This document shows, piece after piece, positions 8,838 through 64,000 of a stretch of 64,000 nucleotides of DNA; position 1 is the stretch's first letter, and every line of letters starts with the position of its first letter. Both the position numbers and the translations under genes were made by a program. The stretch covers positions 205,568-269,567 of the forward strand of contig JAUIFA010000004.1 of the NCBI GenBank assembly GCA_030429625.1, in the 5' to 3' direction. The stretch is from Alphaproteobacteria bacterium. GTDB taxonomy: Bacteria > Pseudomonadota > Alphaproteobacteria > Rickettsiales > UBA8987. The notes under the pieces were generated by a model, which saw only the letters and a list, made by a program, of their open reading frames with translations, searched no databases and had not been told where the DNA came from.

Positions 8838-9563
8838 ATGAAGAACTTTTTGGTAATGAAAAAGGACGAGAAAAACCCCTCTGATGAAGGTGGTAATCGC
8901 CCGTTTCGTCTTGTTGAAACCAAGAACTGGTATAAAGACAGATATCAGATAGTTGTTGTTCAGCGAAATGTTCTGGTCATATTTACCATTGTCGCTCTTA
9001 TAGGATTGGTTGGATTAGTGATTAACGTAGCTGCTTTAAGTAATAGTAAAATCTTTGAACCGTTTGTGATTCAGCTGGATGAGAAAACTGGTATTGTTAC
9101 CAAGGTGGATACAAAATCAGTTGAAAAGCTTACGGCGCTTGAGTCCGTTACACGGGCGCAGCTTTCTCAATATGTGATGGCGCGTGAGTCTTATTCTTTT
9201 CATAGCTATTTCCACAATTATCATCGGGTGGTTCGTGTGCTTTCCTCGGACAATGTGTATGAGGATTTTAGATTTTCCATTGCTCGTGGTGCGCAGGATA
9301 GTCCGTTAAATTTACAAAATAGTGCGACAAGAAGGACCAAAATAAAATCCATAACATTCTTGGATAAGCAAACAGCGCAGGTAAGAATCGCTGTTGACGA
9401 AATTTCTTACCCAAGGGGTGAGTTACTGCATTCACGGCATTACATATTGACGATGTCATTCGAATTTGACCCAAGTCGGGGATTAAGTCCTCAAGAGCGT
9501 TACTTAAACCCGCTTGGCTTTAAAATTACAGGATATTCAAGAGAAACGGAGTTTGTACAATGA
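8838..9563 (+). CDS. virB8: Type IV secretion system protein VirB8
   Basis: 241 aa. Short cytoplasmic N-terminus, one TM helix (VLVIFTIVALIGLVGLVINV), a periplasmic domain ending in NPLGFKITGY, and its position at the head of virB9-11. Confidence 0.88.
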   Translation: MKNFLVMKKDEKNPSDEGGNRPFRLVETKNWYKDRYQIVVVQRNVLVIFTIVALIGLVGLVINVAALSNSKIFEPFVIQLDEKTGIVTKVDTKSVEKLTALESVTRAQLSQYVMARESYSFHSYFHNYHRVVRVLSSDNVYEDFRFSIARGAQDSPLNLQNSATRRTKIKSITFLDKQTAQVRIAVDEISYPRGELLHSRHYILTMSFEFDPSRGLSPQERYLNPLGFKITGYSRETEFVQ

Positions 9564-45547: not shown

Positions 45548-45590
45548 TATATATAACGTAGCTATAGTTTTTCTAAAAAAGGTTAATACG

Positions 45591-47024: not shown

Positions 47025-48337
47025 TGCCTGATCTTTTTGAATCCGATTTAGAAAACAATGATACGTCTGATGCCAATCGTCCGCTGGCCGACCGTATGCG
47101 GCCTAAGAGTTTCGCTGAGGTTCTTGGTCAGGAAGAAATGTTAGGACAGAACAGCTTATTTTCGGATGCGTTACAATCGGAGTCTGTCTTCCCTAGTATT
47201 ATTTTTTGGGGTACGCCGGGATGCGGTAAAACCACTATCGCCCGCTTGATTGCCGATCATACGGACGCTAAATTTGTCATGATTTCCGCCATTACCAGCG
47301 CCACAGCCGAACTGAGAAAGATTTTTCAACAGGCGGAGTTAGATAAGAGACTGGGCAAAAGAACCTTGCTCTTGGTGGATGAGATTCACCGTTTTAATCG
47401 CAGCCAGCAGGATTTATTCCTCCCCTACATTGAAAACGGCACGATCATTCTCATTGGTGCAACGACAGAGAACCCTTCTTTTGAACTAAACTCTGCTCTG
47501 CTGAGCCGCTGTAAGGTTCTGGTGTTAAAGCCGATGAGTGATGATTCTTTAAGGGAGTTAACCTATCGGGCAGAAAAATTTATTGGCAAAAAATTACCCA
47601 TTGACGAAGAGGCCAGAAAAACCCTCTGCGCCTTGGCAAATGGTGATGCACGGGCGTTGCTCGGCATGTGTGAGGATTTATTTAACCACAAGGTTAAGAA
47701 GAAGATAGGGCAGGCTTTACTGCTCGAATTAATTGGCAAAAGAAAGCCAATATACGACAAATCACAAGACGGGCATTATAATTTGCTTAGTGCGTTTCAC
47801 AAATCCATGCGCGCGTCGGATGCCGATGCAGCGATTTATTGGGCAGCGCGCATGCTTGATGGTGGGGAAGATCCGGCCACCATTATCCGTAGAATGGTGG
47901 CGTGTGCAGGAGAAGATGTGGGTATGGCAGACCCGCAGGCGCTGATTCAGGCACTGGCGGCCAAGGATGCTTATGAATATCTTGGTTGGCCGGAATCACG
48001 GCAGGCCATGGCACAGGCGATTATTTATATTTGTACCGCCCCCAAATCCAACGCGTCGTACATGGCAATGAATGCGGCGCTTGCCGATGCAAAAAATGAT
48101 AAATCCTATATGCCACCCAAACATGCGCTGAACGCCCCCACAAAAATGATGAAAGAGCAAGGCTATTCAGACGGATATGTGTACGACCACGATACACCGG
48201 AAGGCTTTAGCGGTCTGTCGTATTTTCCCAAAGAGACCGGCCGCAGAAGCTATTATCAGCCCAACGAACGCGGATTTGAGCGTGACATCAAAAAACGCAT
48301 GGAATATTTTGAGAAACGGCGCAAGCCAAGCGACTAA
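47021..48337 (+). CDS. rarA: Replication-associated recombination protein A (MgsA/RarA AAA+ ATPase)
   Basis: 438 aa. Walker [10 protein letters not shown], Walker [12 protein letters not shown], and C-terminal [23 protein letters not shown]. Confidence 0.94.
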
Positions 48338-49824
48338 CCCAATTTCTTCTTCAAGATTTCGTTCACCGCTGCTGGGTTAGCTTTGCCTTTAGAGGCTTGC
48401 ATCACCTGACCGACAAAGAAGCCGAACAATTTATCTTTACCACTGCGATATTGTTCTACTTTATCCTGATTGGCGTTGAGTACTTCATCAATAATGGCTT
48501 CAATCGCGCCGGTATCGGTGACTTGTTTGAGGCCTTTTTCCTCGATGATTGCGTCTGCATCTTTGCCACTTTCCATCATAATATCTAGCACATCTTTGGC
48601 GATTTTTCCTGAGATTGTATTATCTTTTATCAGATTAATTAAACCAGATAGTTGAATAGATGAAACATTACACTCATCAATGGATTGACCGGATTTATTG
48701 AGCCTTCCGAACAGCTCCGCCGTGACCCATGTTAGGGCCAGTTTGGCATCGCCGGTTTTTTCCAACACCACATCAAAATAATCGGCATTTACCTTATCTG
48801 CCGTTAGCACTCCGGCGTCGTAGGCGCTGATGTTGAACTGCTCCATATAGCGGTTTTTCTTTTCGTCCGGCAATTCAGGTAGATTGTCGTTTATGGCGTC
48901 GATAAAAGACTGCTCAATGACCAGTGGGTAGAGGTCAGGATCTGGGAAATAGCGATAATCATGAGCGTCTTCTTTGGTGCGCATGACACGGGTTTCTCCG
49001 CTGTTTGGGTCAAACAAACGCGTTGCCTGTTCCACTACGCCACCGCTTTCGAGCAGGTCAATTTGACGGCGAGCCTCATAATTAATCGCACTGATGATGT
49101 TGCGGATGGAGTTCAGGTTTTTGATTTCGTTGCGTGTACCGAATTCTGCGCCCGGGCGGCGTACGGAAATGTTGGCATCGCAACGCATTGAGCCTTTTTC
49201 CATGTCGCCGTCACACGTGCCAAGATAGCGTACAATAGCGCGTAATTTCTTCATGTATTGTCCGGCTTCTTCGGCCGAGCGCATGTCCGGCATAGAGACA
49301 ATTTCCATCAAAGCAATGCCCGAACGGTTTAGATCAATAAAGGATTTAGTAGGGTCTTGGTCGTGGATGGATTTGCCGGCATCCTGTTCCAGATGGATGC
49401 GTTCAATGCCGACTTGACGCGTGGAACCATCGGGCATGTCCAGCGTGATGATACCGTTGCCGACAATGGGATCGCTAAATTGGGAAATTTGATAGCCTTG
49501 GGGCAAATCGGCGTAAAAATAGTTTTTGCGGTCAAACACAGAGCGCAAATTGATCTGTGCCTTTAGTCCCAAACCCGTGCGTACCGCCTGCTCCACGCAA
49601 TATTTGTTCAGCACCGGCAGCATCCCCGGCATGGCAGCGTCCACCAATGAAACTTGACTGTTCGGCTGAGCGCCAAACGACGTATCGCTGCCGGAAAATA
49701 GTTTGGAATTAGAACTCACCTGAGCGTGGACTTCCAGCCCAATGACCAGTTCCCAATCGCCGCTATTGCCCTTTACTAAGTTTTCAGGACGGGTTGCTAC
49801 GTTACTGTGTCTGAATTCTGTCAT
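48334..49824 (-). CDS. gatB: Asp/Glu-tRNA(Asn/Gln) amidotransferase subunit B
   Basis: 496 aa. [25 protein letters not shown], and a C-terminal YqeY-like tail. Confidence 0.96.
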
Positions 49825-49825
49825 G

Positions 49826-51310
49826 TTATTCTCCCTTTAATAAGGTCGGGATGGAATCAAAATTCGCCGCTTTCTCAATGGCTGCGCCCACGTTGAAGAC
49901 GGTTTGTTCGTCCCATGGCTTGCCAAGAATTTGCAGACCTAAAGGAGTGCCCTGAGAACTCAACCCCGCCGGAACCGACATGCCGGGAAGACCCGCCAAA
50001 CTCGCCGGAACAGTGAACAAGTCGTTAAGATACATAGCAACAGGATCATCCATTTTTTCACCAATTCCAAACGCTGCAGACGGGGTGGTTGGGGTTAAAA
50101 TAGCGTCTACCTTCTCAAACGCCTGATTAAAATCCTGCGCGATCAAGCGGCGGATTTTCTGTGCCTTAAGGTAATAGGCGTCATAATAACCATGCGAAAG
50201 AACGTAGGTGCCGATAAAGATACGGCGTTTGACTTCGTCACCAAAACCCTCTTCGCGGGTTTGCTCATACATTTCATCGAGCGATTTCACCGGCTTGGAG
50301 GTGCGGTGGCCATAGCGTACACCATCGTAACGCGCTAAATTAGACGAGGCTTCGGCCGGAGCCACAATGTAATATGTCGGCAGGGCATATTTTGTGTAGG
50401 GAAGGGAAATCTCCACGATTTCCGCACCGGCTTCTTTTAGCCAAGCCGCACCTTTCTCCCACAAAGCTTTGATTTCAGAGGGCATACCGTCGGCGATATA
50501 TTCTTTAGGAATGCCGATTCTTTTGCCTTTCATGTCCGCAGAAATAGAGGACGACCATTTAGGCACATCTTTGTTCACGCTGGTGGAGTCTTTTTCATCA
50601 TAGCCGGCAATGGCCTCCAACATAAAGGCACAATCAAGGGTGTTTTTACCAAAGACGCCAGCCTGATCCAGTGAGCTGGCAAAGGCGACTGTTCCCCAGC
50701 GCGAGCATCGGCCATAGGTGGGTTTGATGCCGACTGTGCCGGTGAAAGCGGCCGGTTGACGGATCGATCCTCCCGTGTCGGTTCCTAACGCTGCGGCGCA
50801 TAATCTGGCCGAAACTGCTGCCGCAGAACCACCGGAAGACCCACCAGGCACAAGGTTTGTTTCGTCACCGTTACGTTTCCACGGATTTATTACGTTTCCG
50901 TAATGACTTGTAATGTTTGCCGAGCCCATAGCGAATTCATCGAGGTTGGTTTTGCCCACCATCACCGCACCGTGGGCAAATAAATTTTTCGTGATGCTGG
51001 ATTCATAAGGCGGTATAAAATTACCAAGAATATGGGAGGCAGCGGTTGTTTTAACCCCAGTGGTGCAGAACAAGTCTTTCACTCCAACCGTAATGCCTTC
51101 AAGCAAACCGGCATTACCGGCGGCAATCTTATTATCGGACTGTTTGGCCTGCTCCAGCGCTTTATCCTCAGTGAGGGTGATAAAGGCATTTAGAGATTCG
51201 TATTTTTTACAATGGTTAAGATACTCTGTGGTGAGTTCAACCGAAGAAAAATCTTTATTCTTTAGGCCATCAACGGATTCTTTGATCGATAAATGCGTAA
51301 GATTTGTCAT
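49826..51310 (-). CDS. gatA: Glu-tRNA(Gln) amidotransferase subunit A
   Basis: 494 aa. Amidase signature [13 protein letters not shown]...[12 protein letters not shown]. Confidence 0.96.
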
Positions 51311-51597
51311 TAGCCCACCACCTTTGGTACGACGTAGCAGTCAAAATTGGACTCAGGTGCGTTAGAAAGTACCTTATCCTGAACATTGCCGTCATTGACG
51401 ACATCTTCGCGCAGGCGTGCAGTATAATCACCCACTCCAGCCATTGGTTCAATCCCATCAGTATTGACTTCCTGCAATTGCTCAATCCAATTGAAAATAC
51501 CGTTAAGGTCTTCGGTCATTTTCTTTTTTTCATCATCTGTCACCGCGATACGAGCCAATTTAGCGATTTTACTGACATCCTTACTATCTAAAGACAT
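51310..51597 (-). CDS. gatC: Asp/Glu-tRNA amidotransferase subunit C
   Basis: 95 aa. [44 protein letters not shown]. The stop overlaps the gatA start. Confidence 0.93.
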
Positions 51598-51704
51598 TGC
51601 TTGTACTCTTTATTGTTTTTATATAAGTTGGGTTGCGAAGAGTTTTCTAGTATATTTAATCTCTGCCGTCAAACATAACCATCGATGAACGAAGCAAAAT
51701 AATC

Positions 51705-52073
51705 ATGAACAGGCCAATACCGAAAATTACCATACTCTTACTTGTATCAATAATACTCATATTTCCTGCTGTGTCGTATGCACAAGAAAGTGAAGAGACA
51801 GATTTTGTATCAGAAGACGATATGTCGGCCAACGAATTGTTTGAAGCCGCAGTAGAACATATGGGAGAGGGTGTGAAGAGAATGTTGAAGAAAGACCAGG
51901 AGAAATGGAAAATTGAGGGAACAGAGTCAAAGCAAAAAGACTGCAAGGTACATCGCAAAAAATGCGTAGATATGGCGGCTAAGGGGGGATTTAAAAACAG
52001 AGTGATGGAGATTTTTAGGATTGAGTTTTGTAAAGAAGCTCGGAAAGTCTGTGATGGAGATTGGCACGAATAA
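51705..52073 (+). CDS. Hypothetical secreted protein, 4 Cys
   Basis: 122 aa. Signal peptide with a predicted cleavage site after SYA, an acidic then basic mature part, and four Cys in the C-terminal 45 residues. No family recognised. Confidence 0.5.
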   Translation: MNRPIPKITILLLVSIILIFPAVSYAQESEETDFVSEDDMSANELFEAAVEHMGEGVKRMLKKDQEKWKIEGTESKQKDCKVHRKKCVDMAAKGGFKNRVMEIFRIEFCKEARKVCDGDWHE

Positions 52074-52078
52074 TCGCG

Positions 52079-52921
52079 TTACCAATCTTCGTCAGTAAGC
52101 TTTTGGGTTCTTTCGTCAATAAGGGTTTGCACCTGTTCGTGGGTACAAAAACCGTGCTTAATTGCCAAGTCTCCCAAGCGAATATTTTTCCCACTTTCTT
52201 TAAAGGTTTGTGCTTGTTCTTCTGTCAGAAGGTCACGCTGTGTCGGCGTAATAAGTCCGGCTGTAATCAGGCGTGAGCCCATCCAGTTCTTATCGTTGCT
52301 TTCTTTACCAAGGAAGGAAGAGGGTTCAATGTTCTGTTGTTCTAAAACATTTTGGATTTGTTTTGCACTACAATAACCCAACTTCACTACCAACTCACCA
52401 AAGCGGATATCAATATTTCTTGTCATCAGTTTGCGTTGTTGACTGATAACAATATAGCGTTGCCAATGGGTTAGTAGCCCGGCATTTATCAGCTTGGCAC
52501 CGAGTTTGGTTGTGTCTTCTTCAATAGGATTATCAAAAAGACCCTCATCCATGGCCTGTTTGCTGAGTTCCGTTAACTCTTCTTCTGTCAGCTTTAATTC
52601 ATTTATGATCTTGTCAATGTCTTCGTCTATTGAGGTTTCAATTTCATCGTTTTCTACCGCCGCAAGCATTTGGAAGGTAGAAAAATGTTCAATGGAAACA
52701 GGGTCTTTGGAAGCTACGTTTGCGGACATATCAATGTCGCTGTCTTGCTCAGGGACTTCGTCAGTGTTGATGATTGGGTTGGTATCTTCAGGAGGGAGAG
52801 GTAGTTCTTGGTCTGGGCTGTCTTTATAATCATTGGCAATAATGGTGGGCAAAGGGTCGTAGTTTGGATCGACAAAACTACGCAAAACATCTTTGAAACT
52901 ATACCCTTGTCTGTATGACAT
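52079..52921 (-). CDS. Hypothetical protein: acidic disordered N-terminal half plus two MshEN/T2SSE_N-like repeat modules
   Basis: 280 aa. It begins 17 nt downstream of proB on the same strand. C-terminal repeats are GAKLINAGLLTHWQ...IRFGELVVKLGYCSAKQIQ and GSRLITAGLITPTQ...IRLGDLAIKHGFCTHEQVQ, the same module as in 15542-15976. Confidence 0.68.
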   Translation of the reverse strand: MSYRQGYSFKDVLRSFVDPNYDPLPTIIANDYKDSPDQELPLPPEDTNPIINTDEVPEQDSDIDMSANVASKDPVSIEHFSTFQMLAAVENDEIETSIDEDIDKIINELKLTEEELTELSKQAMDEGLFDNPIEEDTTKLGAKLINAGLLTHWQRYIVISQQRKLMTRNIDIRFGELVVKLGYCSAKQIQNVLEQQNIEPSSFLGKESNDKNWMGSRLITAGLITPTQRDLLTEEQAQTFKESGKNIRLGDLAIKHGFCTHEQVQTLIDERTQKLTDEDW

Positions 52922-52938
52922 GTTTGCTATGACTCATA

Positions 52939-54051
52939 TTAATTTACCATTACCAGATCCGACCTATGAATCATCTCCGTACGTCCATCATACTGTAAAA
53001 TTGTTTCTATTTCACTAGTTTTTCTTCCTAATATCTTTTTTGCTTCTTCTGCCGAGAAAGCAACAAGCCCACGCGCGACTTCGGCACCATGAGCGTTTTT
53101 AATTGTGACAGCATCGCCACGTTCAAAATCCCCCTCAACATTGGTTACTCCTGCCGGCAGGAGACTTTTGCCACGGCTTAGGGCTTCTTCGGCACCGTTG
53201 TCTACACTCAAAGAGCCGGAAGGTTTTAATGTGTGAGCAATCCAGTTCTTACGGGCGGTTTTGGCATCTTCAGACGCTTTGAACAGGGTATGATTATTCG
53301 AGCCATCCAAGAGTTTCTTGATTGGGTGGGGGTCTTTTCCTGAAGTAATGATTGTATGACAGCCGACACTTGCGGCAATCTTTGCGGCCATAATTTTAGT
53401 TTTCATCCCACCAGAACCTACATTGGAGCTTATCCCGTCAGCCATATTTTCAATTGCCTGGTCAATATTTTCTACTACCGCAATGTGCTTTGCTTCGGGG
53501 TGGCTATGGGGATTAGCATCGTACAATCCATCAACATCGGAAAGCAGGATTAAATGCTCTGCCTCAACCATTTGGGCAATACGGGCGGCCAGACGGTCAT
53601 TATCGCCAAAGCGTATTTCATCGGTAGAAATAGTATCATTTTCATTGATGATGGGCACAATGCCCCTTTTTAGCAAAATATTGATAGTGTTGCGGGCATT
53701 TAAATAACGCCGTCTGTTTTCAGAATCTTCCAGAGTGAGTAATATCTGGGCAGCTTTTAAGCCATGGGTATTGAGATGTTTCTCATAATTGTTGATCAAA
53801 GCCAGTTGACCACAGGCGGCAGCGGCCTGTTTTTCATCCAAACGCAGGGGACGGGATTTTATGTTCAGCGCGTCCTTTCCCAATCCAATAGAGCCGGAAG
53901 AGACAAGGATAACATCTACCGATTTTTGCTTTAAATCGGCAATGTCCTCGCACACAGACTGCACCCATTTTGTGCGCAGACGACCGTCACCATCGATTAA
54001 CAAAGCGGAGCCGATTTTTATGATAATTTTCTTGCTTTTAAGTAAGTTCAT
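52939..54051 (-). CDS. proB: Glutamate 5-kinase (with C-terminal PUA domain)
   Basis: 370 aa. IIIKIGSALL, VILVSSGSIGLG, IPIINENDT and FGDNDRLAA, with a PUA-like C-terminus (GDAVTIKN...GLVAFSAEE). Confidence 0.95.
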   Translation of the reverse strand: MNLLKSKKIIIKIGSALLIDGDGRLRTKWVQSVCEDIADLKQKSVDVILVSSGSIGLGKDALNIKSRPLRLDEKQAAAACGQLALINNYEKHLNTHGLKAAQILLTLEDSENRRRYLNARNTINILLKRGIVPIINENDTISTDEIRFGDNDRLAARIAQMVEAEHLILLSDVDGLYDANPHSHPEAKHIAVVENIDQAIENMADGISSNVGSGGMKTKIMAAKIAASVGCHTIITSGKDPHPIKKLLDGSNNHTLFKASEDAKTARKNWIAHTLKPSGSLSVDNGAEEALSRGKSLLPAGVTNVEGDFERGDAVTIKNAHGAEVARGLVAFSAEEAKKILGRKTSEIETILQYDGRTEMIHRSDLVMVN

Positions 54052-54189
54052 AGGCGAATCCTAACGTTTTTTATGGGTTGTGTCGATAGGTAAAATAACA
54101 TAAAAACCACGCTAAAATAGGGGTTGGAATTGAGGGGATAATATGCTATTTCTCACAGAATAATAATTCTTATCCATCTGGGGGAGCTT

Positions 54190-54852
54190 ATGGAACATAA
54201 AGTTATTACGATTTCTCAGCAAAAAGGTGGGGCGGGAAAAACGACCGTAGCGGCGCATCTGGCAATTGGCTTTATGCAGAAGGGATACAAGGTGGCAACG
54301 TTAGACGTTGATCCACAAGGTAGCCTTAGTGCGTGGTACAATGCCAGAGAGGTGTCTCTTGGGGCAGAGAATACCGGCCTTTATTGCGATGTTATGACCG
54401 ACAATTGGGGGCTGGATTATGAAATTGATAAGCTTCAGGAAGAATACGACATTGTGATTATTGATTGTCCGCCACACACTAAGGACAACGCACAAAAGGC
54501 TGTGCGTAAGGCAGATTTGGTATTGATTCCTATTCAGCCTAGCCCTACTGATTTGTGGGCCACTACGAATACGGTATTACTAACCAATCAGGAAAATGCC
54601 CACACCTATCTTTTGTTAAATCGGGTGGTACAAAATTCCAATCTGGCCAAACGTTTTATTAAAGATTTGCCTCGGTCACGCCTTAAAGCAGTTCTGGGCA
54701 ATCGCATCTCTTTCCCAACGGCCATGTCGGAAGGGCTGTGCGTGACTGAAACTCAGCCTTCGAGCAAAGCCGCCAAAGAGGTACAGTCTGTTCTCAAAGA
54801 AGTTATCTCTATTCTTAAGGCACAGGATAAGGAACTTAGAAAGACCGCATAA
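54190..54852 (+). CDS. ParA/MinD-family ATPase (orphan; no parB adjacent)
   Basis: 220 aa. Deviant Walker A SQQKGGAGKTT, LDVDPQGS, and Walker B IVIIDCPP. Confidence 0.87.
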   Translation: MEHKVITISQQKGGAGKTTVAAHLAIGFMQKGYKVATLDVDPQGSLSAWYNAREVSLGAENTGLYCDVMTDNWGLDYEIDKLQEEYDIVIIDCPPHTKDNAQKAVRKADLVLIPIQPSPTDLWATTNTVLLTNQENAHTYLLLNRVVQNSNLAKRFIKDLPRSRLKAVLGNRISFPTAMSEGLCVTETQPSSKAAKEVQSVLKEVISILKAQDKELRKTA

Positions 54853-54966
54853 TGTGGCTACACCACATAGGTTGAGTTTCAACATCATAAATCATCTTTT
54901 TGTTGCAATTAAAGAATTGTTGCTTATACTGCGGAGCATAATTGGAGCTTGGGGGAGCCTAGGATT

Positions 54967-55083
54967 ATGGATACGTCAAAAATAAAAGAAGCTATGGCTT
55001 ATTTTTACTTCGCCCTTTGTCTAGGGATGGCCGCTTTGGCCATTATCCTAGGCGAGGCGGCAAGCCGAAGCCTTTTGCTATAG
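54967..55083 (+). CDS. Hypothetical 38-aa single-TM peptide (MDTSKIKEAMAYFYFALCLGMAALAIILGEAASRSLLL)
   Basis: Below the track cutoff. GGGGGAG lies about 10 nt upstream. The hydrophobic core is compatible with a small membrane protein. The stop overlaps the convergent 55078-55650 gene. Confidence 0.2.
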   Translation: MDTSKIKEAMAYFYFALCLGMAALAIILGEAASRSLLL

Positions 55084-55650
55084 GCCGGAGATGTTGGTAT
55101 CAATGCCTAAGGACGATATTAGTTCATAGTAAAAGAAAAGCGATAAGACAAAAAACACAAACAATATAATTTCATGTTTAAACTGGTGGGAGTGGAAAAA
55201 GCTTCGGTCTTTGTGGTGTAAAACATCCATCAACTCGTCGCCAAAACGGATAGAAAGAAACGTCCCGCCGCAGGAGAGCAAAATAATGCTCCAATAGGGA
55301 TAGGGCTGTGTCAGTACCTTATGCAGAATCTGGGTCAGTAAGGTGGTATCGTAATAGTGAGGCGCGGAAAATAAGGCAAACAGATTCAGCGAGATGGCAA
55401 TAACCCACACACCTATTTCTGAGGCAATCATCCGGATACCAAAAAGCAGACGCAGGGGAAAATCCAGCAGAAATCCGGCATCGGCGATGGGGGTACATAA
55501 AACAAAGAAGCTCCAGCTTAGTGCGGCTGCAAATCCACCTGTAACAATATCGTATTTGTAGCTAAGATAAGCAAAATACCCCACCATAATTGCCAACAGG
55601 ACAACAAATTTTATTAAGACTTGTTTTTTTGGTTTTATGGTAATTTTCAT
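55078..55650 (-). CDS. Hypothetical multi-pass membrane protein
   Basis: 190 aa with about 5 hydrophobic segments. No family recognised. Confidence 0.55.
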   Translation of the reverse strand: MKITIKPKKQVLIKFVVLLAIMVGYFAYLSYKYDIVTGGFAAALSWSFFVLCTPIADAGFLLDFPLRLLFGIRMIASEIGVWVIAISLNLFALFSAPHYYDTTLLTQILHKVLTQPYPYWSIILLSCGGTFLSIRFGDELMDVLHHKDRSFFHSHQFKHEIILFVFFVLSLFFYYELISSLGIDTNISGL

Positions 55651-55666
55651 GGCTTCCTGAGTATGT

Positions 55667-55999
55667 TTGCAATCTGTTGAAAGACTAAGCTATTATATAC
55701 CATTTTACATATTTGTTAAACAGGCTTATACAGAAGTAAATAGTTTTGGGGAAAATATCCTGCATGATCCGGACGAGAAAGCGCATGCGTTTATTGCAAA
55801 TTACCAAAAGCTTGGTTTTATCACCGATGACTCATTGGTTATTTTAAAACCTGGAAAGAATTATGTGCAATACAGAAATGGAAAGAATGTGCCGGAAAAG
55901 CATGTTGATAAAAAGTTGTTGTTAGAAACAATTTCCTACTACAAACATGCGGCGAATTGGAAGGAGCATATATTAAAAATTCCCACTGTGAAGCAGTAA
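55667..55999 (+). CDS. Hypothetical protein (weak call; no in-frame ATG)
   Basis: 110-codon ORF opened only by a TTG, 16 nt from the divergent gene start. There is no ATG anywhere in frame and no SD. It may be shorter, a relic, or not coding. Confidence 0.3.
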   Translation: MQSVERLSYYIPFYIFVKQAYTEVNSFGENILHDPDEKAHAFIANYQKLGFITDDSLVILKPGKNYVQYRNGKNVPEKHVDKKLLLETISYYKHAANWKEHILKIPTVKQ

Positions 56000-56160
56000 C
56001 ATCTTCAGGGGAACAACTAAAAACCACAAACACCACACACCGCGTGAGACACAGAAAATAGGCTAAGATATTGAAATATAACTAGAAGATTATGGTGGGG
56101 CAGTTAATGACTTGATCACCTAGCCATCCGTTTCCCTGATAACCCCTTATTTACAGGGTA

Positions 56161-56190
56161 ATTTTAGAAAATAACAGGGAACGCCCCGTT
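56161..56190 (-). terminator. Possible weak intrinsic terminator after cusA
   Basis: The minus strand reads AACGGGG, loop CGTT, CCCTGTT (7 bp including one G:U), followed by ATTTTCT. The stem abuts the cusA stop codon. Confidence 0.3.
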
Positions 56191-59100
56191 TAGATTTTAT
56201 ACTTTCTTCCTTCCCACAGATAGTAAACCACCGGAATGACGATCAATGTTAACAATGTGGTAGATACCATGCCCCCCACCATCGGCAGAGCAATACGCCG
56301 CATAACATCCGCACCCAGACCCTCGGTTATAAACACCGGCAACAGCCCCACAATAATAACGGACACGGTCATTAATTTTGGCCGCACGCGTAGCACAGCA
56401 CCGTGCATTACCGCCTCAAAGAGTTGTGGAAGGTTATGCGGCGGGTGATAACGCGCTTGCTGGTCGAGATAAATCAGCATAACCACAGCGGTTTCAACCG
56501 CTATTCCTGCCAGTGCAATAAAGCCCACCGCTACCGCCACAGAGAAATTATAGTCTGCTAGATATAACAACCACACACCACCGGTCAGACCGAAAGGCAA
56601 TGACAACATTACCATCAATGTTCTGTCTAAACGTCCGAAATGCAGCACTAGTAGCACGAAGATTATAGCAATAACGGCAGGAATGGCGATGTTCAACCGC
56701 GCACGCGCTTCAACCATTTGCTCAAACTGCCCTGACCAGCCAATGGAATAGCCGGCCGGCAGTTTTACCTTCTCAGCAACCACCCTTTGTGCGTCCTCTA
56801 CATAGCCACCAATATCTCGATCGGCAATGTCCACATAGACCCACCCGTTCAATCTCGCATTCTCTGAGATGATCATTGGCGGGGCTGCTTCCAGTTTGAT
56901 CTCCGCCAGCTCTCCCAATGCTATCTGCTTGCGGTTTAGGGAATATACCAGCAATTTACTTACGTCCTCGATAGTTTCGCGGAAAGGGCGGTCATAACGC
57001 AGCATAATTCCATACCGTTCGCGCCCTTGTACGGATTCTCCCAGTTTCATGCCACCAAGAGCGCTGGCAACAACTTGTTGTAGGTCGCCCATGTCCACCT
57101 GTTCTTGCAGCATGATCTGGCGGTTGGGTTCAATGGTTATGTATTTTGCTCCCTTTACCCTATCGGCAAAGGCGGAACGGGTGCCGGGGATGGCTTTTAC
57201 GACCTGTTCGACTTGCAAAGCGATGTCATTAATACCGGCAAGGTCTGGTCCGGAAATCTTGATACCGATTGGGGTACGGATACCGGTCGTCACCATATCT
57301 ATACGGGTTTTGATGGGGTATCCGAAGGAATTAATTAGACCCGGTATTTTGGTTAGCCTATCCAATTCCTTTATCAGCTTTTGCGTTGTCATCCCCTCCC
57401 GCCATTGTTCTTTTGGTTTGAGGCGAATCCATGTCTCAATCATGGAAATAGGCGCAGGATCAGTGGCTGTATCGGAGCGTCCAGCCTTGCCGAACACAGT
57501 CTCCACCTCCGGTACGGTTTTGATGATACGGTTGGTTGTTTGCAACACTTCTTTGGCCTTGGTAATGGAGACGCCCGGCAGAGTGGTTGGCATGTAAAGC
57601 AGATCGCCTTCATACAGTGCCGGCATAAACTCCGTACCGGTATGTTTTAACGGCCATGCTACACTTAACAACAACACTCCTACGAGCATAAGGGTCGGCC
57701 ATTTTGCTCTAAGTGCCAATGCTAATATTGGTGTATATATGGCGATAAAAAAACGGTTTATCGGGTTTTGATCTTCCCGAAGCATTCGCCCCCGAATTAA
57801 CCACATCATGAGCAATGGAACAACAGTAACGGAAAGAATTGCCGCTGCCGCCATAGAATAGGTCTTCGTATAAGCCAACGGCGAAAACAGCCGTTCAGAT
57901 TGCCCCGTAAGGGCAAATACCGGCATAAATGAGACGGTGATAATGAGTAATGAGAAAAACAGCCCCGGCCCAACCTCTTTGGCGGCCAATAATAATGCCT
58001 GACTTTTCTCAGCAGGTTCGGCATCTTGCCGTAATGTTGATAATTTTCGGTGGGCATTTTCCACCATCACGATACTTGCATCAACCATCGCACCAATGGC
58101 AATGGCAATGCCGCCAAGCGACATAATATTGGCGGTAATTCCCTGCCATGACATGACTATAAAGGCTGCTAGCACACCCAGTGGCAGCGTCACTATGGCA
58201 ACAAAAGACGAACGCACATGTAACAGAAAAATCAGACATACTAGCGAGACAACGATAGCTTCCTCAATGAGCTTATGCGTAAGGTATTGCACCGAACCCT
58301 CGATCAATGGCATGCGGTCATAGACCGGCACAATCTCAACCCCTTCTGGCAGTCCGGGTGTGATGGATTGAATTTTCTTTTTAATCGCCTTGATCACCTC
58401 CAGAGCATTACTCCCCGGACGCATGACGATAATGCCGGCAGGTACCTCCCCTTCACCGTTAAGTTCCGTTACGCCACGGCGCAGTTCTGGCCCTTCAATA
58501 ACACGCGCCACATCTCCAACTGCCGAGGGAATTCCGTATATGCTATGCACCACCAATTTTTCTAAGTCTTCTGCGGTGCCGACATAACCTTTGGTGCGAA
58601 CAATGAATTCCGTCTCTGCCTGCTCGATGGTACGTCCTCCTGATTCTCGGCTGGCATGACGAATCGCCTCAATAATGGTAGTCAGTGGGATACCCCTCTT
58701 ATGGGCTTCTTTAGGATCGACAAGCACCTGATATTCTTTCACGAAACCTCCGACACTTGCCACTTCGGCCACCCCCGGCACTGTGGCCAGCTCGTATTTG
58801 AGGAACCAATCCTGAACAGCGCGCAATTGCGCAAGATCGTGCTTCCCACTCTTATCCACCAATGCGTATTGGTAAACCCAGCCGACTCCCGTTGCGTCTG
58901 GCCCAAGTTGCGCATTGGCACCTTCGGGCAGTGTGGCTTGCACTTTAGATAAGGCCTCTAATACCCGTGAACGTGCCCAGTATAAATCCGTTCCGTCATG
59001 AAAGATAACATAGACAAACGATACACCAAACATAGAATATCCCCGTACTATTTTGGCCTTAGGCACCCCAAGCATGGCCGAAGAAAGCGGATAGGTCACA

Positions 59101-59330
59101 AGATCTTCAACGATTTGTGGTGCTTGCCCGTTAAAATCAGTACGCACGATCACTTGCGTATCAGAAAGATCAGGGATAGCATCCAATGGCATGTGCCGGA
59201 TGGCAAAACTCCCACTTACTAATATTGCCAGCACTAAGATGGAAATCAGCAATGGGTTATGTACCGACCATTCAATGATACGGGCAATGACACTTTGTGT
59301 TGGATCGTGTGGTGCGTTAGTGTCCTGCAT
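56190..59330 (-). CDS. cusA: Heavy-metal efflux RND transporter, CusA/CzcA family
   Basis: The ATG at 59330 is preceded by GGGAGGTGA; the track ORF is 18 codons longer. About 1046 aa with 12-TM RND architecture. [12 protein letters not shown] and [11 protein letters not shown] at the N-terminus are typical of the HME-RND family. Confidence 0.92.
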
Positions 59331-59847
59331 GCTCACCTCCCTGAAACTTTTCCAATGCTTCACGCAGATTGGATTCGGCATCAATCATAAACTGGGCCCG
59401 TGTGACAATGTTCTCACCTTCCGTAAGACCGGAAATTATTTGTGTATTGCTATAGGAAATGTTCCCGATGGTAACATCACGACCCTGAAAACGCCCATTG
59501 CCCAGTGCGACGATGACATGGCCGCCTTCACTGCTACGCAGGATGGCAGAATTTGGAATGTACAATATGCCATTCTCCCTGCTTACCGGTTGCGTACGTA
59601 CTCCCATCGTTTGAATCGTACCAGACTCGATGGTGATTATCGGTTTTTCATCCGGTGCTGTTATATTATGATTATGTGCACCAGCATCTATTGGAACCAA
59701 TGTCATGCCGCAAATAGGGCATGTGCCGGGCTTATCCTCTATGATTTGCGGATGCATTGGGCATGTATATTTAACCGCATGCTCTGCGTAAGCGGTCACC
59801 GTGCTGAGCAGCAAAACGGCAATGGTTAAAATAATATGTTTCATCAT
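59317..59847 (-). CDS. cusB: Truncated CusB-like periplasmic adaptor: signal peptide, CPMHP/CPxCGM metal-binding motif and membrane-proximal domain only
   Basis: 176 aa. [26 protein letters not shown], then [19 protein letters not shown] joined directly to [36 protein letters not shown]...[22 protein letters not shown]. These align with the N- and C-terminal ends of E. coli CusB. It overlaps the cusA start by 14 nt. Confidence 0.75.
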
Positions 59848-59927
59848 TTCTGTCCTTATAGGTTAACATATGGATGGAACGCCACTGTGCTCCGTATAGC
59901 ATAAGGCTTATACGGACGTGACAAAGC

Positions 59928-59949
59928 AAACTGACGATTTCGTCAGTTT
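59928..59949. promoter_or_regulatory. Perfect 10-2-10 palindrome resembling a CusR/CopR copper box (alternatively a terminator hairpin)
   Basis: AAACTGACGA TT TCGTCAGTTT is centred about 91 nt upstream of the cusB-like ATG and begins 4 nt after the stop of the Cys-rich gene. For comparison, the E. coli CusR box as I recall it is AAAATGACAA NN TTGTCATTTT. Confidence 0.4.
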
Positions 59950-59952
59950 GTT

Positions 59953-60315
59953 TTAGGACAGAATACGGGGAGGTTGTTTATCCGGCATGAGCAGAACAGA
60001 CATGGCCTGCTCGTTATCCAGTATGAATGTTATATTAGTTCCCCCAAAAGTACCAACCTGAACGGTGGTAGGGGCGTAGAAAACAGAGAAAGAGGACATG
60101 CCGCAACGAGCAGAACCATCATCACAGCATTTGTTTTTATTGCCGTCATTCTTATCATGCGACATGCAGTCAGGACAATGGGCACAATCCATCGTTTGCA
60201 TATCGCCGCCCCGTTTCATCGGGCAGGCCGACACATCCGGAGCAATTCCCATTGAAGAGAATACCAACGCAAAAACGATAAACACTGTACTAAGTTTTTT
60301 AAACATAACTTTCAT
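59953..60315 (-). CDS. Hypothetical secreted Cys/Met/His-rich protein (putative metal-binding)
   Basis: From the ATG at 60315 (or 60306) it reads MKVMFKKLSTVFIVFALVFSSMGIA (signal peptide), then ACPMKRGGDMQTMDCAHCPDCMSHDKNDGNKNKCCDDGSARCGM with 7 Cys. It lies upstream of cusB-cusA on the same strand. Confidence 0.55.
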   Translation of the reverse strand: MKVMFKKLSTVFIVFALVFSSMGIAPDVSACPMKRGGDMQTMDCAHCPDCMSHDKNDGNKNKCCDDGSARCGMSSFSVFYAPTTVQVGTFGGTNITFILDNEQAMSVLLMPDKQPPRILS

Positions 60316-60440
60316 TCTGTGGATTCTACAGAATTTTATGGTAAAAGTAAATGACTTCGTCCTGTGAACTATATTTGTTACTAATAATAAAGCTATGGGT
60401 CTAAAGAAAAGCACAACGAGCAGATTAAGTTAAATGTTTT

Positions 60441-60821
60441 CTAAAACAACCCTTTTTCTTTAAAAGCTTTTATTAACTTCTCTTTGGAGAGTTGTTTCGA
60501 AATGAATCCATCCGCTCCAGCCATTTTTGCTAGTGTCTGCCCTTCTTGATCATCGCCAACAGCCGTGTATAAAAAAACAATAATGTTACTGTGCACTTGT
60601 TTGATTAACTCTACCATTTTAACGCCATCCACACCGGGAATATGCCAATCCATTAACACCACACTTATATTATTAATATCTTGTTTTCCGTGTTTTTCAA
60701 AATACATCCCGACTTCAGCAGCACACCTTGCTGTTTCAACATTGAAACCTAATCCTTTGAGTAGGACTGTCGCTTTTGCTCGATTAAAATCAATATCATC
60801 CACAATAAGGCAGGTTTTCAT
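60441..60821 (-). CDS. Single-domain response regulator (CheY-like receiver)
   Basis: The ATG at 60821 follows GGGGAAA; the track start at 60833 lacks an SD. CLIVDDID, VLMDWHIPGVDG and FISKQL. Confidence 0.87.
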   Translation of the reverse strand: MKTCLIVDDIDFNRAKATVLLKGLGFNVETARCAAEVGMYFEKHGKQDINNISVVLMDWHIPGVDGVKMVELIKQVHSNIIVFLYTAVGDDQEGQTLAKMAGADGFISKQLSKEKLIKAFKEKGLF

Positions 60822-60858
60822 ATATTTCCCCATTGTACGGGTGTTGATATAATTTCTA

Positions 60859-61191
60859 TCAATAGATCGCTTCCAGAAAATCTTTTACTTTCTGGTACTC
60901 TGCTTTTATTCCTTCAAGCATGGTTTGTTTCTCCGCTGCAGGAGCATCGTATTTTTCCTGAGCTTCTTTGCACAGCTCCCCAAGTTTATCAGCTCCCAAA
61001 TTAATGGAGGTGCCTTTGAGTGCGTGGGCACTCGTACGAAAACCCTCATTTTCACCATCCACACAGCTGTTTTCCATGCCCACAATGCATTCTTCTGAAG
61101 ACGAAAAGAACTCATCGAATAACATCTTTTCCATCTCAACGTCACCGTCAGTCATTTCTCGAAGGTTGGTTAAATTTACCGGATCACTCAT
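60859..61191 (-). CDS. Hpt-domain histidine phosphotransfer protein
   Basis: 110 aa. Phosphorylatable His in SAHALKGTSINLGADKL. The start overlaps the stop of the upstream RR (TGATG). Confidence 0.85.
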   Translation of the reverse strand: MSDPVNLTNLREMTDGDVEMEKMLFDEFFSSSEECIVGMENSCVDGENEGFRTSAHALKGTSINLGADKLGELCKEAQEKYDAPAAEKQTMLEGIKAEYQKVKDFLEAIY

Positions 61192-61634
61192 CAGCTATTC
61201 TCCTCTTCTTTGGCTGCAATAAACTTATCAATAGATTCGTATATTTTATCTTTTGTATACGGCTTGACCACAAAGCCTTTGGCACCAAATTGGTCTGCCT
61301 TTCTTGCGTCTTCCTGATAAGAATTTGCTGTGACCATTACAATAAAAGCATTTTTGTCCAGTTGTGTCAGTAGCTTTAACACATTATGCCCACTTATTTT
61401 TGGGAGCTCTATGTCTAAGAATACGATATCCGGAGCATTTTTTATGTATTCTGCCAGTGCCTCTTCTCCGGTGGCAACATCAATTACGCTGTAGTTTTTA
61501 GCAAGAAAATTTTTAAGCATCAGGCGGGAAAATTTTTGATCTTCTACTATCAGAATTTGTAGATCATCTCTTCTTTCACGGCTCTTTAATGCTGCTTCAA
61601 ATGTTTCTTTATTAATCTGTGTATTGTCCAACAT
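61191..61634 (-). CDS. Single-domain response regulator with a ~25-aa N-terminal extension
   Basis: ATG at 61634. ILIVEDQ, VFLDIELPKISG and FVVKPY. Confidence 0.85.
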   Translation of the reverse strand: MLDNTQINKETFEAALKSRERRDDLQILIVEDQKFSRLMLKNFLAKNYSVIDVATGEEALAEYIKNAPDIVFLDIELPKISGHNVLKLLTQLDKNAFIVMVTANSYQEDARKADQFGAKGFVVKPYTKDKIYESIDKFIAAKEEENS

Positions 61635-61736
61635 AATTTTACTGCTACAACCTTTAGATGAATTATTACTGGAAGATTGCAAAAAAAAGGTTATACTAAA
61701 AGTTGTTTATATATCCCATACTAGAATAGGCTTAAG

Positions 61737-64000
61737 ATGCTAGAATTACCAGAATTTTTTTTCATATACGGCTCTGCTCCCAAAAATGCTGAGTCGGGCA
61801 CCTACATTATGCCGTTGGTTGCCTTGTCTTACATTGTTGCCTCTCTTGCCTCTTACACGGCACTGGATCTTGCTACCCATTTGGCAAGCAAACATAAAAA
61901 CAATAAAGTTATTTTGCACATTGGCGGTTCGTTTGCCATGGGTGCTGGGATTTGGGCAATGCATTTCATCGGCATGCTTGCCTACAAGATGGCAATGTAT
62001 GTTGAGTATGATCCGTTTCTAACATTTCTCTCTATGTTTGTGGCCATTGCCATTGCCTATTTTGTGTTGGACATTGTTAAGGGAGAAAGGTTAAGCGTTT
62101 ACCAGATTACGGTGGGCGCAATTTTATTGGGCATTGGAATTTGCGCGATGCATTATACCGGAATGGCAGCCATGATAATGGATGGTGATATTCGTTATAC
62201 GCCAGGGCTATTTGCGCTCTCAGTGGCGATTGCTATTTCTGCTTCGGCAGCGGCCTTGTTGATTGCTTTTACCCTAGCTCGGCACAAAGGAAGGTTTCAA
62301 TATTTGTTTAAGGGGATTGCTGCGCTTGTGATGGGTGCCGCCATTTGCGGTATGCATTATACCGGAATGGCGGCCACTGTCTTTATTCCTTGGGCAGAGT
62401 GTCGCTACGATCCGGAGCAAAGCTTTACGGGCATCGCTTTAGGCATTGCAGGTGTGACCTTCCTTATTCTGGGCACGGCCCTTTATTTTGGTGTACGTTA
62501 TCGGGAAGAAGGCAAGAGCAAATCCACTATTTTTGCTAAGCATCAGACTTACATGCCGGTTGTAGCGGCGGTAGTGTTTGGGATTTTTATCTCCTTCTTT
62601 GTTTTTTATTTTATCAGAGACGTACAACAGAAAGAAACACACAAATATTTTGTGCTGGAGTCTAGGGTCTATTCCCAGGCGCTAGAATTATTAGCCCGTG
62701 ATCTTTCCGATCAGGGCATTGTTAATTCTGCCGAGCTTATTGACCAGCTGGAGAAGCAAAAAGAAAATTTAGAAAATTATGGTTTGCAGGCAACCTTCTC
62801 TGTGTTGGGAAATAATCTTCCTGAGACAGAAAAGGATAACTTTATCTTTCAGGACATAATTAGAGTTTCGAAAAATCAAATATACACTACCTTTTTTCCT
62901 AAGCCCGGGAGATTTGAGCGTAAAAAATGGCCAGAATTTTCAGTTTTGTTTGGTGGAATGGGCATCACTCTCTTAATTGCCGGCTACTTTTATCTTTTAA
63001 TTCAACAGCAGCGCAAAGAGAAAGGGAGAAGAAAGGAATTACGTAAACAAATAACAGAAAAAGAACATCTCCAAAAGCAGCTAGAAGAATATATTGAAAA
63101 TGTACAGCAAGCCCAACTTGAAGCCATAGAGGCAGGCAAAAGATTGTGGGGTGAAAAAGAGCATATTCGAGCCATTGTGGATAATGTGAAGGAAGGAATT
63201 ATTACCATAAATAAAGAAGGTATTATCCAGTCTTTCAATGCCGAAGCAGAAAAAATGTTTGGCTATAAGAAAGAGGAAGCCATTGGCCAGAATGTGAAAA
63301 TAATTGTACCGGAGCCGGACAGAAGTAAGCATGATGGATATTTAAAAAGGTATCTTAAGACCGGCGAAGCTAAGGTTATTGGGGTTGGCAGAGAGTTAAC
63401 CTCCGTTGATAAAAATGGGAAAAAATTTCCGGTGTATTTGAATGTTACAAAAATAGAAATAAACAAAGAATTGTTGTTTATTGGTCTGGTTCGTGACATT
63501 ACGGAACAAAAGCAAAAGGAGCAAGAATTAAGAGACGCAAAGGAGACTGCCGAAGCCGCCAGCGCGGCAAAAGGAGACTTTCTGGCAAATATGAGCCACG
63601 AAATTCGTACTCCGATGAATGGCGTGTTGGGGATGGCCGGACTGTTGCTGGACACAAAACTTACAGCAGAACAACATGGTTGGGCCAACATTATCAAAAC
63701 ATCGGGTGAAAATTTGTTGGATATCATCAATGACATTCTTGATTTTTCCAAAATAGAAGCGGGGAAGTTAGAACTGGAGCCCATCAATTTTAATCTTTCT
63801 TCGGCGGTGGAAGAAGTAACAGACGTGTTGCGCTTGCAGACCCAGGAAAAAGGCCTTGAATTATTGGTGCAGTTTGCGCCGGACGTGCCAGAATTTGTAG
63901 TGGGAGATCCTGGGCGCGTGCGTCAAATCCTTCTGAATCTTACCAACAATGCCATTAAATTTACGGAAAAAGGACATGTGCTTATTGAAATAAAGGCAAA
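61737..64000 (+). CDS. Sensor histidine kinase: MHYT membrane domain, TM/coiled coil, PAS, HisKA, HATPase (partial; continues past the window end, possibly a hybrid kinase)
   Basis: Absent from the ORF track because no stop is reached. My translation from the ATG at 61737 shows three MHYT repeats (AMHFIGMLA, AMHYTGMAA, GMHYTGMAA), a PAS segment (IVDNVKEGIITINKEGIIQSFNAEAEKMFGY), the H box FLANMSHEIRTPMNG and the N box ILLNLTNNAIKFT. Confidence 0.9.
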   Translation, partial: MLELPEFFFIYGSAPKNAESGTYIMPLVALSYIVASLASYTALDLATHLASKHKNNKVILHIGGSFAMGAGIWAMHFIGMLAYKMAMYVEYDPFLTFLSMFVAIAIAYFVLDIVKGERLSVYQITVGAILLGIGICAMHYTGMAAMIMDGDIRYTPGLFALSVAIAISASAAALLIAFTLARHKGRFQYLFKGIAALVMGAAICGMHYTGMAATVFIPWAECRYDPEQSFTGIALGIAGVTFLILGTALYFGVRYREEGKSKSTIFAKHQTYMPVVAAVVFGIFISFFVFYFIRDVQQKETHKYFVLESRVYSQALELLARDLSDQGIVNSAELIDQLEKQKENLENYGLQATFSVLGNNLPETEKDNFIFQDIIRVSKNQIYTTFFPKPGRFERKKWPEFSVLFGGMGITLLIAGYFYLLIQQQRKEKGRRKELRKQITEKEHLQKQLEEYIENVQQAQLEAIEAGKRLWGEKEHIRAIVDNVKEGIITINKEGIIQSFNAEAEKMFGYKKEEAIGQNVKIIVPEPDRSKHDGYLKRYLKTGEAKVIGVGRELTSVDKNGKKFPVYLNVTKIEINKELLFIGLVRDITEQKQKEQELRDAKETAEAASAAKGDFLANMSHEIRTPMNGVLGMAGLLLDTKLTAEQHGWANIIKTSGENLLDIINDILDFSKIEAGKLELEPINFNLSSAVEEVTDVLRLQTQEKGLELLVQFAPDVPEFVVGDPGRVRQILLNLTNNAIKFTEKGHVLIEIKA

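Follow-up and report, generated by a model that had tools for sequence, protein, structure and literature searches.

A short CusB-like protein encoded directly upstream of cusA in an alphaproteobacterium: a naturally minimised periplasmic adaptor and a possible two-component copper pump

The periplasmic adaptors of resistance-nodulation-division (RND) pumps are regarded as an obligatory bridge from the inner-membrane pump to the outer-membrane channel, and in the case of the copper/silver adaptor CusB it is still debated whether it acts mainly as a metal funnel or as a metal-dependent switch for its pump CusA. In a stretch of 64,000 nucleotides from an alphaproteobacterium assigned to the Rickettsiales (contig JAUIFA010000004.1, positions 205,568 to 269,567; here called the window), a cusA gene is directly preceded by a gene for a protein of only 176 residues, here called mini-CusB, which resembles both ends of CusB. 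This raises the question of whether mini-CusB is a remnant, a metal chaperone or an adaptor, and, if an adaptor, what it could do for CusA. The features needed to follow the argument are, in window coordinates:

59317..59847, minus strand: mini-cusB, gene for a 176-residue periplasmic adaptor with signal peptide, heavy metal-binding domain (HMBD), His-rich linker, membrane-proximal (MP) domain, C-terminal helix and GGEHAGH tail
59785..59847, minus strand: Sec signal peptide, residues 1-21, predicted cut AYA|EH, read from the sequence
59692..59772, minus strand: HMBD, residues 26-52, YTCPMHP...CPICGM, Pfam PF19335
59632..59691, minus strand: flexible His-rich linker, residues ~53-72, with invariant H58 and H60
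59380..59631, minus strand: MP beta-roll domain, residues ~73-156
59336..59341, minus strand: GGGAGG, Shine-Dalgarno sequence for cusA, 5 nt before the cusA start and within the mini-cusB codons for a conserved GG
56190..59330, minus strand: cusA, gene for a 1046-residue Cu(I)/Ag(I)-type heavy metal efflux (HME) RND permease

The sole Pfam match in mini-CusB is the HMBD (PF19335) at residues 26-52, with an E-value of 1.7e-15 and 57 bits against a cutoff of 23.6. The match of the NCBIfam model for CusB (NF007303), at residues 91-169, was confined to model positions 328-406 out of 414 and scored 63 bits against a cutoff of 390; the models TIGR01730 (RND_mfp; 37.7 against 94.9) and TIGR00999 (32.2 against 319) stayed below their cutoffs as well. 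When mini-CusB was compared with E. coli CusB by BLASTP and phmmer, residues 18-90 corresponded to CusB 35-101 and residues 91-176 to CusB 321-405. In a MAFFT alignment that included E. coli CusB and the closest full-length relatives, mini-CusB showed a single clean internal gap, which runs from the first MP strand to the C-terminal MP segment and spans the beta-barrel, lipoyl and helical domains (about residues 102-320 of E. coli CusB), the N-terminal strand of the MP domain (about CusB 80-101) being joined directly to the equivalent of CusB ~321-385. Nothing in mini-CusB aligned to the beta-barrel segments of CusB (~105-115 and 243-320) and, unlike in the full-length relatives, no Beta-barrel_RND Pfam match was found in it. 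Neither a lipoyl (barrel-sandwich hybrid) domain nor an alpha-helical hairpin or three-helix bundle was detected by alignment or in the predicted structure.

An AlphaFold2 (AF2) model, built on a shallow family alignment of 10 sequences, consisted of a signal-peptide helix (residues 2-17), a small knuckle with predicted local distance difference test (pLDDT) values of about 90, a disordered stretch at residues 56-69 (pLDDT <50) and a beta-rich domain at residues 79-155 (pLDDT 90-95), followed by a C-terminal helix. The best match of this model in the PDB as judged by Foldseek was 5A4G, and the next was CusB from the CusBA complex. The MP domains of CusB, MexA, AcrA, MacA, BesA, and ZneB superposed at 1.3-3.3 Å over ~57-62 columns, TriABC was among the structural matches, and the knuckle matched the HMBD of LpCopA (8OVL) at 2.1 Å over 33 columns. 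Alignments, AF2 model and superposition agree that an MP domain made from the N- and C-terminal segments is present.

Judged from sequence and predicted structure, mini-CusB is a naturally minimised RND periplasmic adaptor, which consists of an HMBD knuckle, a His-rich tether of ~20 residues and the MP domain only. An in-frame deletion has removed the barrel, lipoyl, and helical domains, those responsible for oligomerisation and for extending to the outer-membrane factor (OMF). Because it lacks three of the four structural domains of the family and stays below the family score, we refer to it as a CusB-derived minimal adaptor and not as a CusB. This picture bears out the sequence-only reading, which had placed a CPMHP...CPxCGM motif after a signal peptide, had recognised the two end segments of CusB as the membrane-proximal domain, and had held the barrel, lipoyl, and hairpin domains to be cleanly absent with the frame kept; the profile, BLAST and structure-prediction comparisons that it had proposed confirmed the domain composition, and no divergent form of the missing domains was seen by alignment or in the predicted structure.

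Mini-CusB shares with E. coli CusB and Cupriavidus SilB an N-terminal metal knuckle, an MP domain and a gene position immediately upstream of cusA, and differs from CusB by lacking residues ~102-320, which form the hexameric funnel and reach CusC. Its closest structural match, 5A4G, is the nuclear magnetic resonance structure of an engineered SilB construct of 180 residues, made up of the N-terminal metal site and the MP domain, and thus has the same two-module make-up and nearly the same length; residues 27-169 of mini-CusB align with residues 30-169 of 5A4G (E-value 2e-12). Whereas 5A4G is a laboratory deletion of a tripartite adaptor, mini-CusB is the product of a natural, conserved gene with its own operon and, as far as this alignment goes, evolution has made in mini-CusB the same deletion as was made in the SilB construct.

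Across the family alignment of mini-CusB proteins, residues C29, M31, H32, C43, C46, and M48 of the HMBD are invariant or nearly so, and in the linker H58 and H60, which make up an H-x-H motif, are invariant, as is the core of the MP domain; a GG-x-HAGH tail is common. The trigonal sulphur site for Cu(I)/Ag(I) is predicted, by analogy with LpCopA, to be formed by M31, C46, and M48. This three-sulphur site is equivalent to M49, M64, and M66 of CusB; the HMBD of mini-CusB is of a Cys/Met type whereas the site of CusB is all-Met. The HMBD of LpCopA is a PF19335 domain too, with 52% identity to that of mini-CusB over the aligned core. It binds Ag(I) via M44, C59, and M61, and both it and the N-terminal domain of SilB have been proposed to sense Cu(I) with a trigonal sulphur site; in LpCopA, sensing of copper by the M/C/M site is proposed to relieve autoinhibition (PMC11970713). 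However, the HMBD of LpCopA is cytoplasmic and fused to a P-type ATPase whereas that of mini-CusB is periplasmic and fused to an RND-docking domain.

The mini-cusB open reading frame (ORF) opens with ATG, with AAGGA located 6 nt 5' of it, and the encoded protein carries, as read from the sequence, a cleavable signal peptide and no lipid anchor. The ORF listing for cusA begins at a TTG at 59384; the ATG at 59330 (MQDTNAPH...) is conserved and is the best start, and with it the two genes overlap by 14 nt (59317-59330) and are translationally coupled. These details agree with an earlier description of a 176-residue ORF with a good Shine-Dalgarno sequence and a 14-nt overlap with cusA. As the GG-x-HAGH tail is encoded across the Shine-Dalgarno sequence and the start codon of cusA, it is doubly constrained.

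To judge how widespread this arrangement is, the family was searched for among 5.8 billion proteins, which yielded nine further clusters with the mini-CusB architecture (150-204 residues, 50-66% identity) from alphaproteobacterial metagenome-assembled genomes (MAGs) and metagenomes. In a profile search of 1.84 billion representatives, the best 150 matches were inspected and only four of these (P0004, P0007, P0008, and P0176) were short single-stretch proteins, the rest being adaptors of 336-938 residues. P0176, from a Fibrobacteria MAG, is a lipoprotein mini-CusB with an LTGC lipobox at the position of the signal peptide, and forms with P0307-P0310 and P0312 (182-202 residues) a second clade of short proteins. 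Databases name the members of the mini-CusB family 'hypothetical protein' or 'heavy metal-binding domain-containing protein'. In all six contexts recovered (L001, which is the window; L002/L003; L004; L005/L006; L089/L090; and L091) mini-cusB lies directly before cusA. The two genes overlap by 14 nt in five of the six, as determined from junction sequences for L001, L002, L004, and L005 and from gene coordinates for L091, and by 4 nt in L089; the junction with its internal Shine-Dalgarno sequence is conserved in L001, L002, L004, and L005. In the Fibrobacteria locus L088, mini-cusB and cusA are separated by a 9-nt gap and do not overlap. The flanking genes are unrelated between the mini loci.

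For mini-cusB, pN (nonsynonymous) values of 0.21-0.35 and saturated pS (synonymous) values of 0.6-0.83 were obtained, with dN/dS at ~0.1-0.36, and cusA in the same operons is under stronger constraint (dN/dS 0.04-0.18). The MP domain is the best conserved part of the protein and shows 56-61% identity to the MP domain of sister full-length adaptors. By these measures mini-cusB is under purifying selection and belongs to a conserved family, and is not a decaying gene. The sequence-only reading had likewise argued against a decaying pseudogene, a view with which the conserved architecture and dN/dS agree, and the survey for short orthologues next to cusA that it had called for found them in a conserved family with two independent origins. 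As a condition that would weaken its case it had named a lineage-specific deletion in a group whose relatives carry full-length cusB; such relatives do exist (L008, L009, and L096) but the deletion is old, common to divergent genomes and under purifying selection.

Two sets of apparent family members were discarded. P0011-P0013 and many matches named 'rubrerythrin' come from short contigs and represent the C-terminal part of long adaptors that carry HMBD repeats. Planctomycete tblastn matches (L012-L016, L038, and others) were ruled out as minis with HMBD and MP domain after inspection of L015, where the adaptor has ~690 residues and a second HMBD inserted directly ahead of its C-terminal MP segment, and where an OMF gene is located upstream. 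The CusB-like adaptors of this kind, in Thalassoglobus neptunius (L015, 6888-8981) and in the similar loci L012-L016, L018, L021, L022, and L038, have ~680-720 residues; the extra HMBD directly adjoins the C-terminal MP segment on its N-terminal side, and the proteins end in a long acidic extension. A protein of another type, P0029 (280 residues, on a 463-kb contig), is a lipoprotein adaptor with HMBD, apparent MP strand, beta-barrel-like segment and C-terminal MP segment, and without obvious lipoyl or helical domains, which suggests a graded series of reduced metal adaptors.

The origin of the short form was approached with a bootstrapped tree of 53 CusA sequences, obtained by neighbour-joining only. 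The four CusAs associated with alphaproteobacterial minis are monophyletic (100/100) and sister to the tripartite L008+L009+L096 (100/100), and the mini-associated CusAs from Fibrobacteria, L088+L098, form a group (100/100) that is sister to the tripartite L074 (100/100). As the mini-associated CusAs thus fall into two separate clades, adaptor reduction happened at least twice. The sister operons have the order X - OMF - full-length CusB - CusA, where X is a small secreted protein considered further below, and the CusB from L008 ends with GGEHGGH and overlaps cusA by the same 14 nt. Compared in this way, the module in the window is a sister-type operon from which cusC and the middle of cusB are missing; the ancestor of the family, as read from tree and gene order, had a normal X-cusC-cusB-cusA operon and the window's clade lost cusC along with the channel-reaching domains. 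It was also seen that CusB from L008/L009 (6840-8270) carries two tandem N-terminal knuckles, a Cys-type HMBD and a Met-type, CusB-like one (YWYDPM...SPFMDM), of which the mini proteins keep only the Cys-type knuckle.

The permease itself appears intact. CusA from the window scored 1114.6 bits with TIGR00914 (cutoff 701), is 52% identical to E. coli CusA, and keeps the Met triad M573/M623/M672, the proton relay D405/E939/K984 and three transmembrane Met pairs (391-1009, 403-486, and 410-501), and there is no large deletion in its docking subdomains. From its sequence, CusA is a bona fide, complete Cu(I)/Ag(I)-type HME-RND permease. The loss of the M271/M755 pair was considered as a sign of an altered exit path and was dismissed, as most tripartite comparators also lack the pair. 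When positions that are at least 85% conserved in 44 non-mini CusAs were scanned, with a change counted if present in at least three of the four mini-clade sequences, 5/47 conserved positions in the docking subdomains DN and DC had changed in the mini clade, including the fixed changes A734L and G793R, as against 6/353 elsewhere, a signal that comes from only four sequences and depends on DN and DC limits set by analogy with AcrB and CusA. The CusAs of the window and L009 are 78% identical overall, 63% in DN and 60% in DC, while those of L008 and L009 are 84% identical overall and 80-81% identical in DN/DC. CusB is known to bind CusA at DN and DC through its MP and barrel domains (PMC4338810), and the pattern of changes would fit, as supportive evidence only, an adaptor interface that was remodelled once the barrel domain had been lost.

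Whether an OMF accompanies the reduced adaptor was examined with a profile. E. coli CusC as a single phmmer query missed almost all OMFs, and an OMF HMM was therefore built by iteration from E. coli CusC and the OMF of L015. With this HMM an adjacent OMF gene was detected in 56 of 80 comparator loci encoding full-length HMBD-CusB, and many of the remaining comparator loci are cut by contig ends. No match was obtained in positions 45000-64000 of the window or in L001-L006 and L089-L091; in five of the alphaproteobacterial mini loci the available sequence extends at least 6 kb upstream. Neither an OMF nor CusF is encoded by ten large ORFs elsewhere in the window, which specify unrelated enzymes and envelope proteins; TolB is among the window ORFs, and the organism is therefore diderm. 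No phmmer match to E. coli CusF was found in positions 45000-64000 of the window or in any mini locus, and no second adaptor gene was found near the mini loci. The earlier claim that cusC or another OMF gene, cusF, and cusRS are missing nearby therefore stands for OMF and CusF, but two-component genes do lie directly upstream (60441-61682, encoding single-domain receivers and Hpt, with hybrid kinases beyond), although they are not CusRS-like. This phosphorelay cluster (L001 542-8316) comprises a receiver, Hpt, a receiver, an MHYT/PAS hybrid kinase, a FIST protein and a hybrid kinase, and its genes are not conserved beside the module in other loci.

From these elements a mechanism can be proposed, in which the MP domain would dock on the periplasmic face of CusA and the tethered HMBD would bind periplasmic Cu(I), either free or passed on by protein X. 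The metal-loaded HMBD would then serve as a metal-dependent switch and/or loader for CusA, and CusA, driven by the proton gradient, would move Cu(I) from the cytoplasm and inner-membrane region via its methionine relay, with release of the metal into the periplasm and no dedicated duct through the outer membrane. In adaptors, the MP/C-terminal domain is known to contact and stimulate the transporter (PMC4338810). We lean towards this account of mini-CusB as an activator that docks on CusA, senses or loads Cu(I) and operates without a dedicated outer-membrane duct. The wider proposal, namely a two-component inner-membrane HME-RND copper pump in a diderm without an outer-membrane duct, whose adaptor was pared down twice independently to a Cu(I)-sensing head and a transporter-activating MP domain, is offered more tentatively, as a possibility. 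The sequence-only reading had already suggested a two-part pump; the absence of an OMF gene at every alphaproteobacterial locus speaks for it without proving it, and one Fibrobacteria locus has an OEP gene.

Several points weigh against the activator account. We infer docking of mini-CusB on CusA from homology and gene coupling only, and the docking-subdomain signal comes from four sequences, as said above. Release of Cu(I) into the periplasm would be useful only if the metal is taken up from the cytoplasm or membrane, and the basis for uptake from the cytoplasm is in vitro work on CusA of E. coli. The gene for an OMF is often not linked to that of its pump, as with tolC in E. coli. In the Fibrobacteria loci L101/L102, a genuine though divergent OEP-family gene (Pfam, 72.6 bits) is located 2.3 kb upstream of the pair on the same strand, in a copper island with the order Cu-ATPase, MerR, DUF305, OEP, multicopper oxidase, DUF3347, DUF2231, mini-cusB, cusA. 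The L101 OEP protein has no BLAST similarity to CusC-type OMFs and scored only 66 bits on the OMF HMM, and its gene is followed by one for a multicopper oxidase. Absence of an OMF gene at the locus is thus a property of the window's clade and not a proven rule for all mini adaptors. In Fibrobacteria, genes for DUF3347 and DUF2231 always lie before the mini-cusB/cusA pair (L101 190-10010, also L098).

The main rival, which we consider unlikely, retains a trans-envelope pump: CusA with the mini adaptor would dock on an OMF encoded elsewhere (TolC-like), or an unlinked second full-length adaptor would pair with the mini as in TriABC, mini-CusB then serving for metal loading or activation only. 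Such an arrangement would make sense of the docking subdomains of CusA, which are kept without large deletions, and is encouraged by the fact that OMF genes can be unlinked, by the OEP gene in the same cluster as the Fibrobacteria mini in L101/L102, by the presence of TriABC among the structural matches, and by the hairpin-less adaptor BesA, which still works with an OMF (PMC4446572). BesA, however, keeps both barrel and lipoyl domains, and no RND-OMF assembly without these two adaptor domains is described in PMC4446572 or PMC4338810. Furthermore, the cognate cusC was lost together with the upper domains of the adaptor in all five loci whose sequence reaches at least 6 kb upstream, no second adaptor gene is nearby, and the L101 OEP protein, with a multicopper oxidase gene as neighbour, is not CusC-like.

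Somewhat more doubtful still is that mini-CusB serves in soluble form as a chaperone or buffer for periplasmic copper, a functional analogue of CusF which forms no stable complex with CusA, uses the MP fold as a stable scaffold and exchanges metal transiently with CusA or cuproenzymes. An HMBD on a long disordered tether and a His-rich linker and tail would suit metal capture, the signal peptide of the protein from the window is of the cleavable kind, without a lipid anchor, and no CusF homologue is encoded in any mini locus. It is hard to reconcile with this role that the MP domain is the best conserved part, at 56-61% identity to sister full-length adaptors that bind CusA, that translational coupling to cusA argues for stoichiometric assembly, and that the homologues from Fibrobacteria are lipoproteins, as would be expected if they dock close to the membrane. 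That mini-cusB is a non-functional remnant, a decaying in-frame deletion allele of cusB beside a pump no longer used, is essentially excluded, for although the closest relatives outside the clade carry full-length cusB and cusC, the architecture is intact in ~16 protein clusters, spread over two phyla, and arose twice independently, synonymous sites are saturated at an amino-acid identity of 50-66% and a dN/dS of ~0.1-0.36, CusA is more strongly constrained and keeps all catalytic residues, and the Shine-Dalgarno sequence and overlap are conserved.

The activator account leaves a place for protein X in metal delivery. The gene for X and the elements that frame the module are:

59953..60315, minus strand: gene X, first gene of the module, for a 120-residue secreted Cys/Met-rich protein with the pattern CPM...C-HCP...CC-D...C...RPPxxLS
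59848..59952, minus strand: spacer of 105 nt between X and mini-cusB with two stable hairpins, predicted at -34 kcal/mol (RNAfold)
60314..60351, minus strand: promoter-like TTTACT-17-TAGAAT, ending 8 nt before the ATG of X; consensus match only
56173..56190, minus strand: terminator-like hairpin with T-rich tail, directly 3' of the cusA stop codon

Protein X is a candidate periplasmic metal handler. An X homologue precedes mini-cusB in every mini locus with upstream sequence, and X homologues stand at the head of tripartite operons just as well, before the OMF gene, which makes X a general accessory rather than a substitute for the missing parts. The earlier suggestion that the upstream Cys-rich protein might be part of the pump is therefore right in that X is a conserved partner but loses weight from its presence at the head of tripartite operons. 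The X family comprises 39 clusters, all unnamed and some precomputed as PF26622 (DUF8199); X from the window has no Pfam match at an E-value of up to 0.1, and homologues 59% identical to it are precomputed as PF26622. It is 57-59% identical to X of tripartite operons, including that at L092 5705-6067, which adjoins resolvase, phage-replication and S24-peptidase genes, and at most 27% identical to X of L003, L004, L089, and L091, although mini-CusB and CusA from the window are closest to those loci. From these comparisons, either there are two subfamilies of X in which evolution is very fast, or recombination may have exchanged the first gene of the module. At L089 an extra stand-alone gene (9414-9674) for a secreted HMBD protein of 86 residues lies between X and mini-cusB, and a phage-type integrase gene is located just upstream, which hints at mobility of the module.

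A hairpin is present at the same spacer position in L002 and L005, and the spacer hairpins are possibly an attenuator or an element for processing or stability that may set the ratio of X to pump expression. A palindrome, ATTCTGT-N7-ACAGAAT, overlaps the -10-like TAGAAT and no Shine-Dalgarno sequence precedes X; judging by its position, the palindrome may be an operator on a leaderless transcript. At the other end, the hairpin after the cusA stop codon is the probable end of the operon, and the downstream ORFs 55078-55650 and 55667-55999 were ruled out as members of the module since they have no homologues in other loci.

Adaptors that have lost domains are known. BesA, without hairpin, and EmrA, without MP domain, are precedents for modular loss (PMC4446572; PMC4338810), but in each of them a single domain is missing and the bridge to an OMF persists, whereas mini-CusB keeps only the MP domain and is thus the opposite extreme to EmrA. 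BesA and EmrA are the atypical adaptors treated in reviews, in which an MP-only adaptor is not described (PMC4446572, PMC8277102, PMC4338810), and targeted full-text searches of the literature on short or truncated forms of CusB, on adaptors with an HMBD and on MP-only adaptors brought up no natural case. A small periplasm-facing partner encoded directly upstream of an RND permease is also found in mycobacteria, where MmpS accompanies MmpL and there is no TolC-type duct. MmpS has no kinship with mini-CusB in sequence or fold, is membrane-anchored and does not bind metal.

In the debate on CusB as funnel or switch, mini-CusB amounts to a deletion experiment made by evolution, which isolates the switch or loader function. 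If the proposed two-component pump is real, the activating or loading role of RND adaptors would be separable from channel bridging and could outlive it, and HME-RND pumps would be useful without a dedicated exit duct. This would also change how orphan cusA and czcA genes are read in genome annotation, in which the partner proteins of cusA described here are labelled 'hypothetical'.

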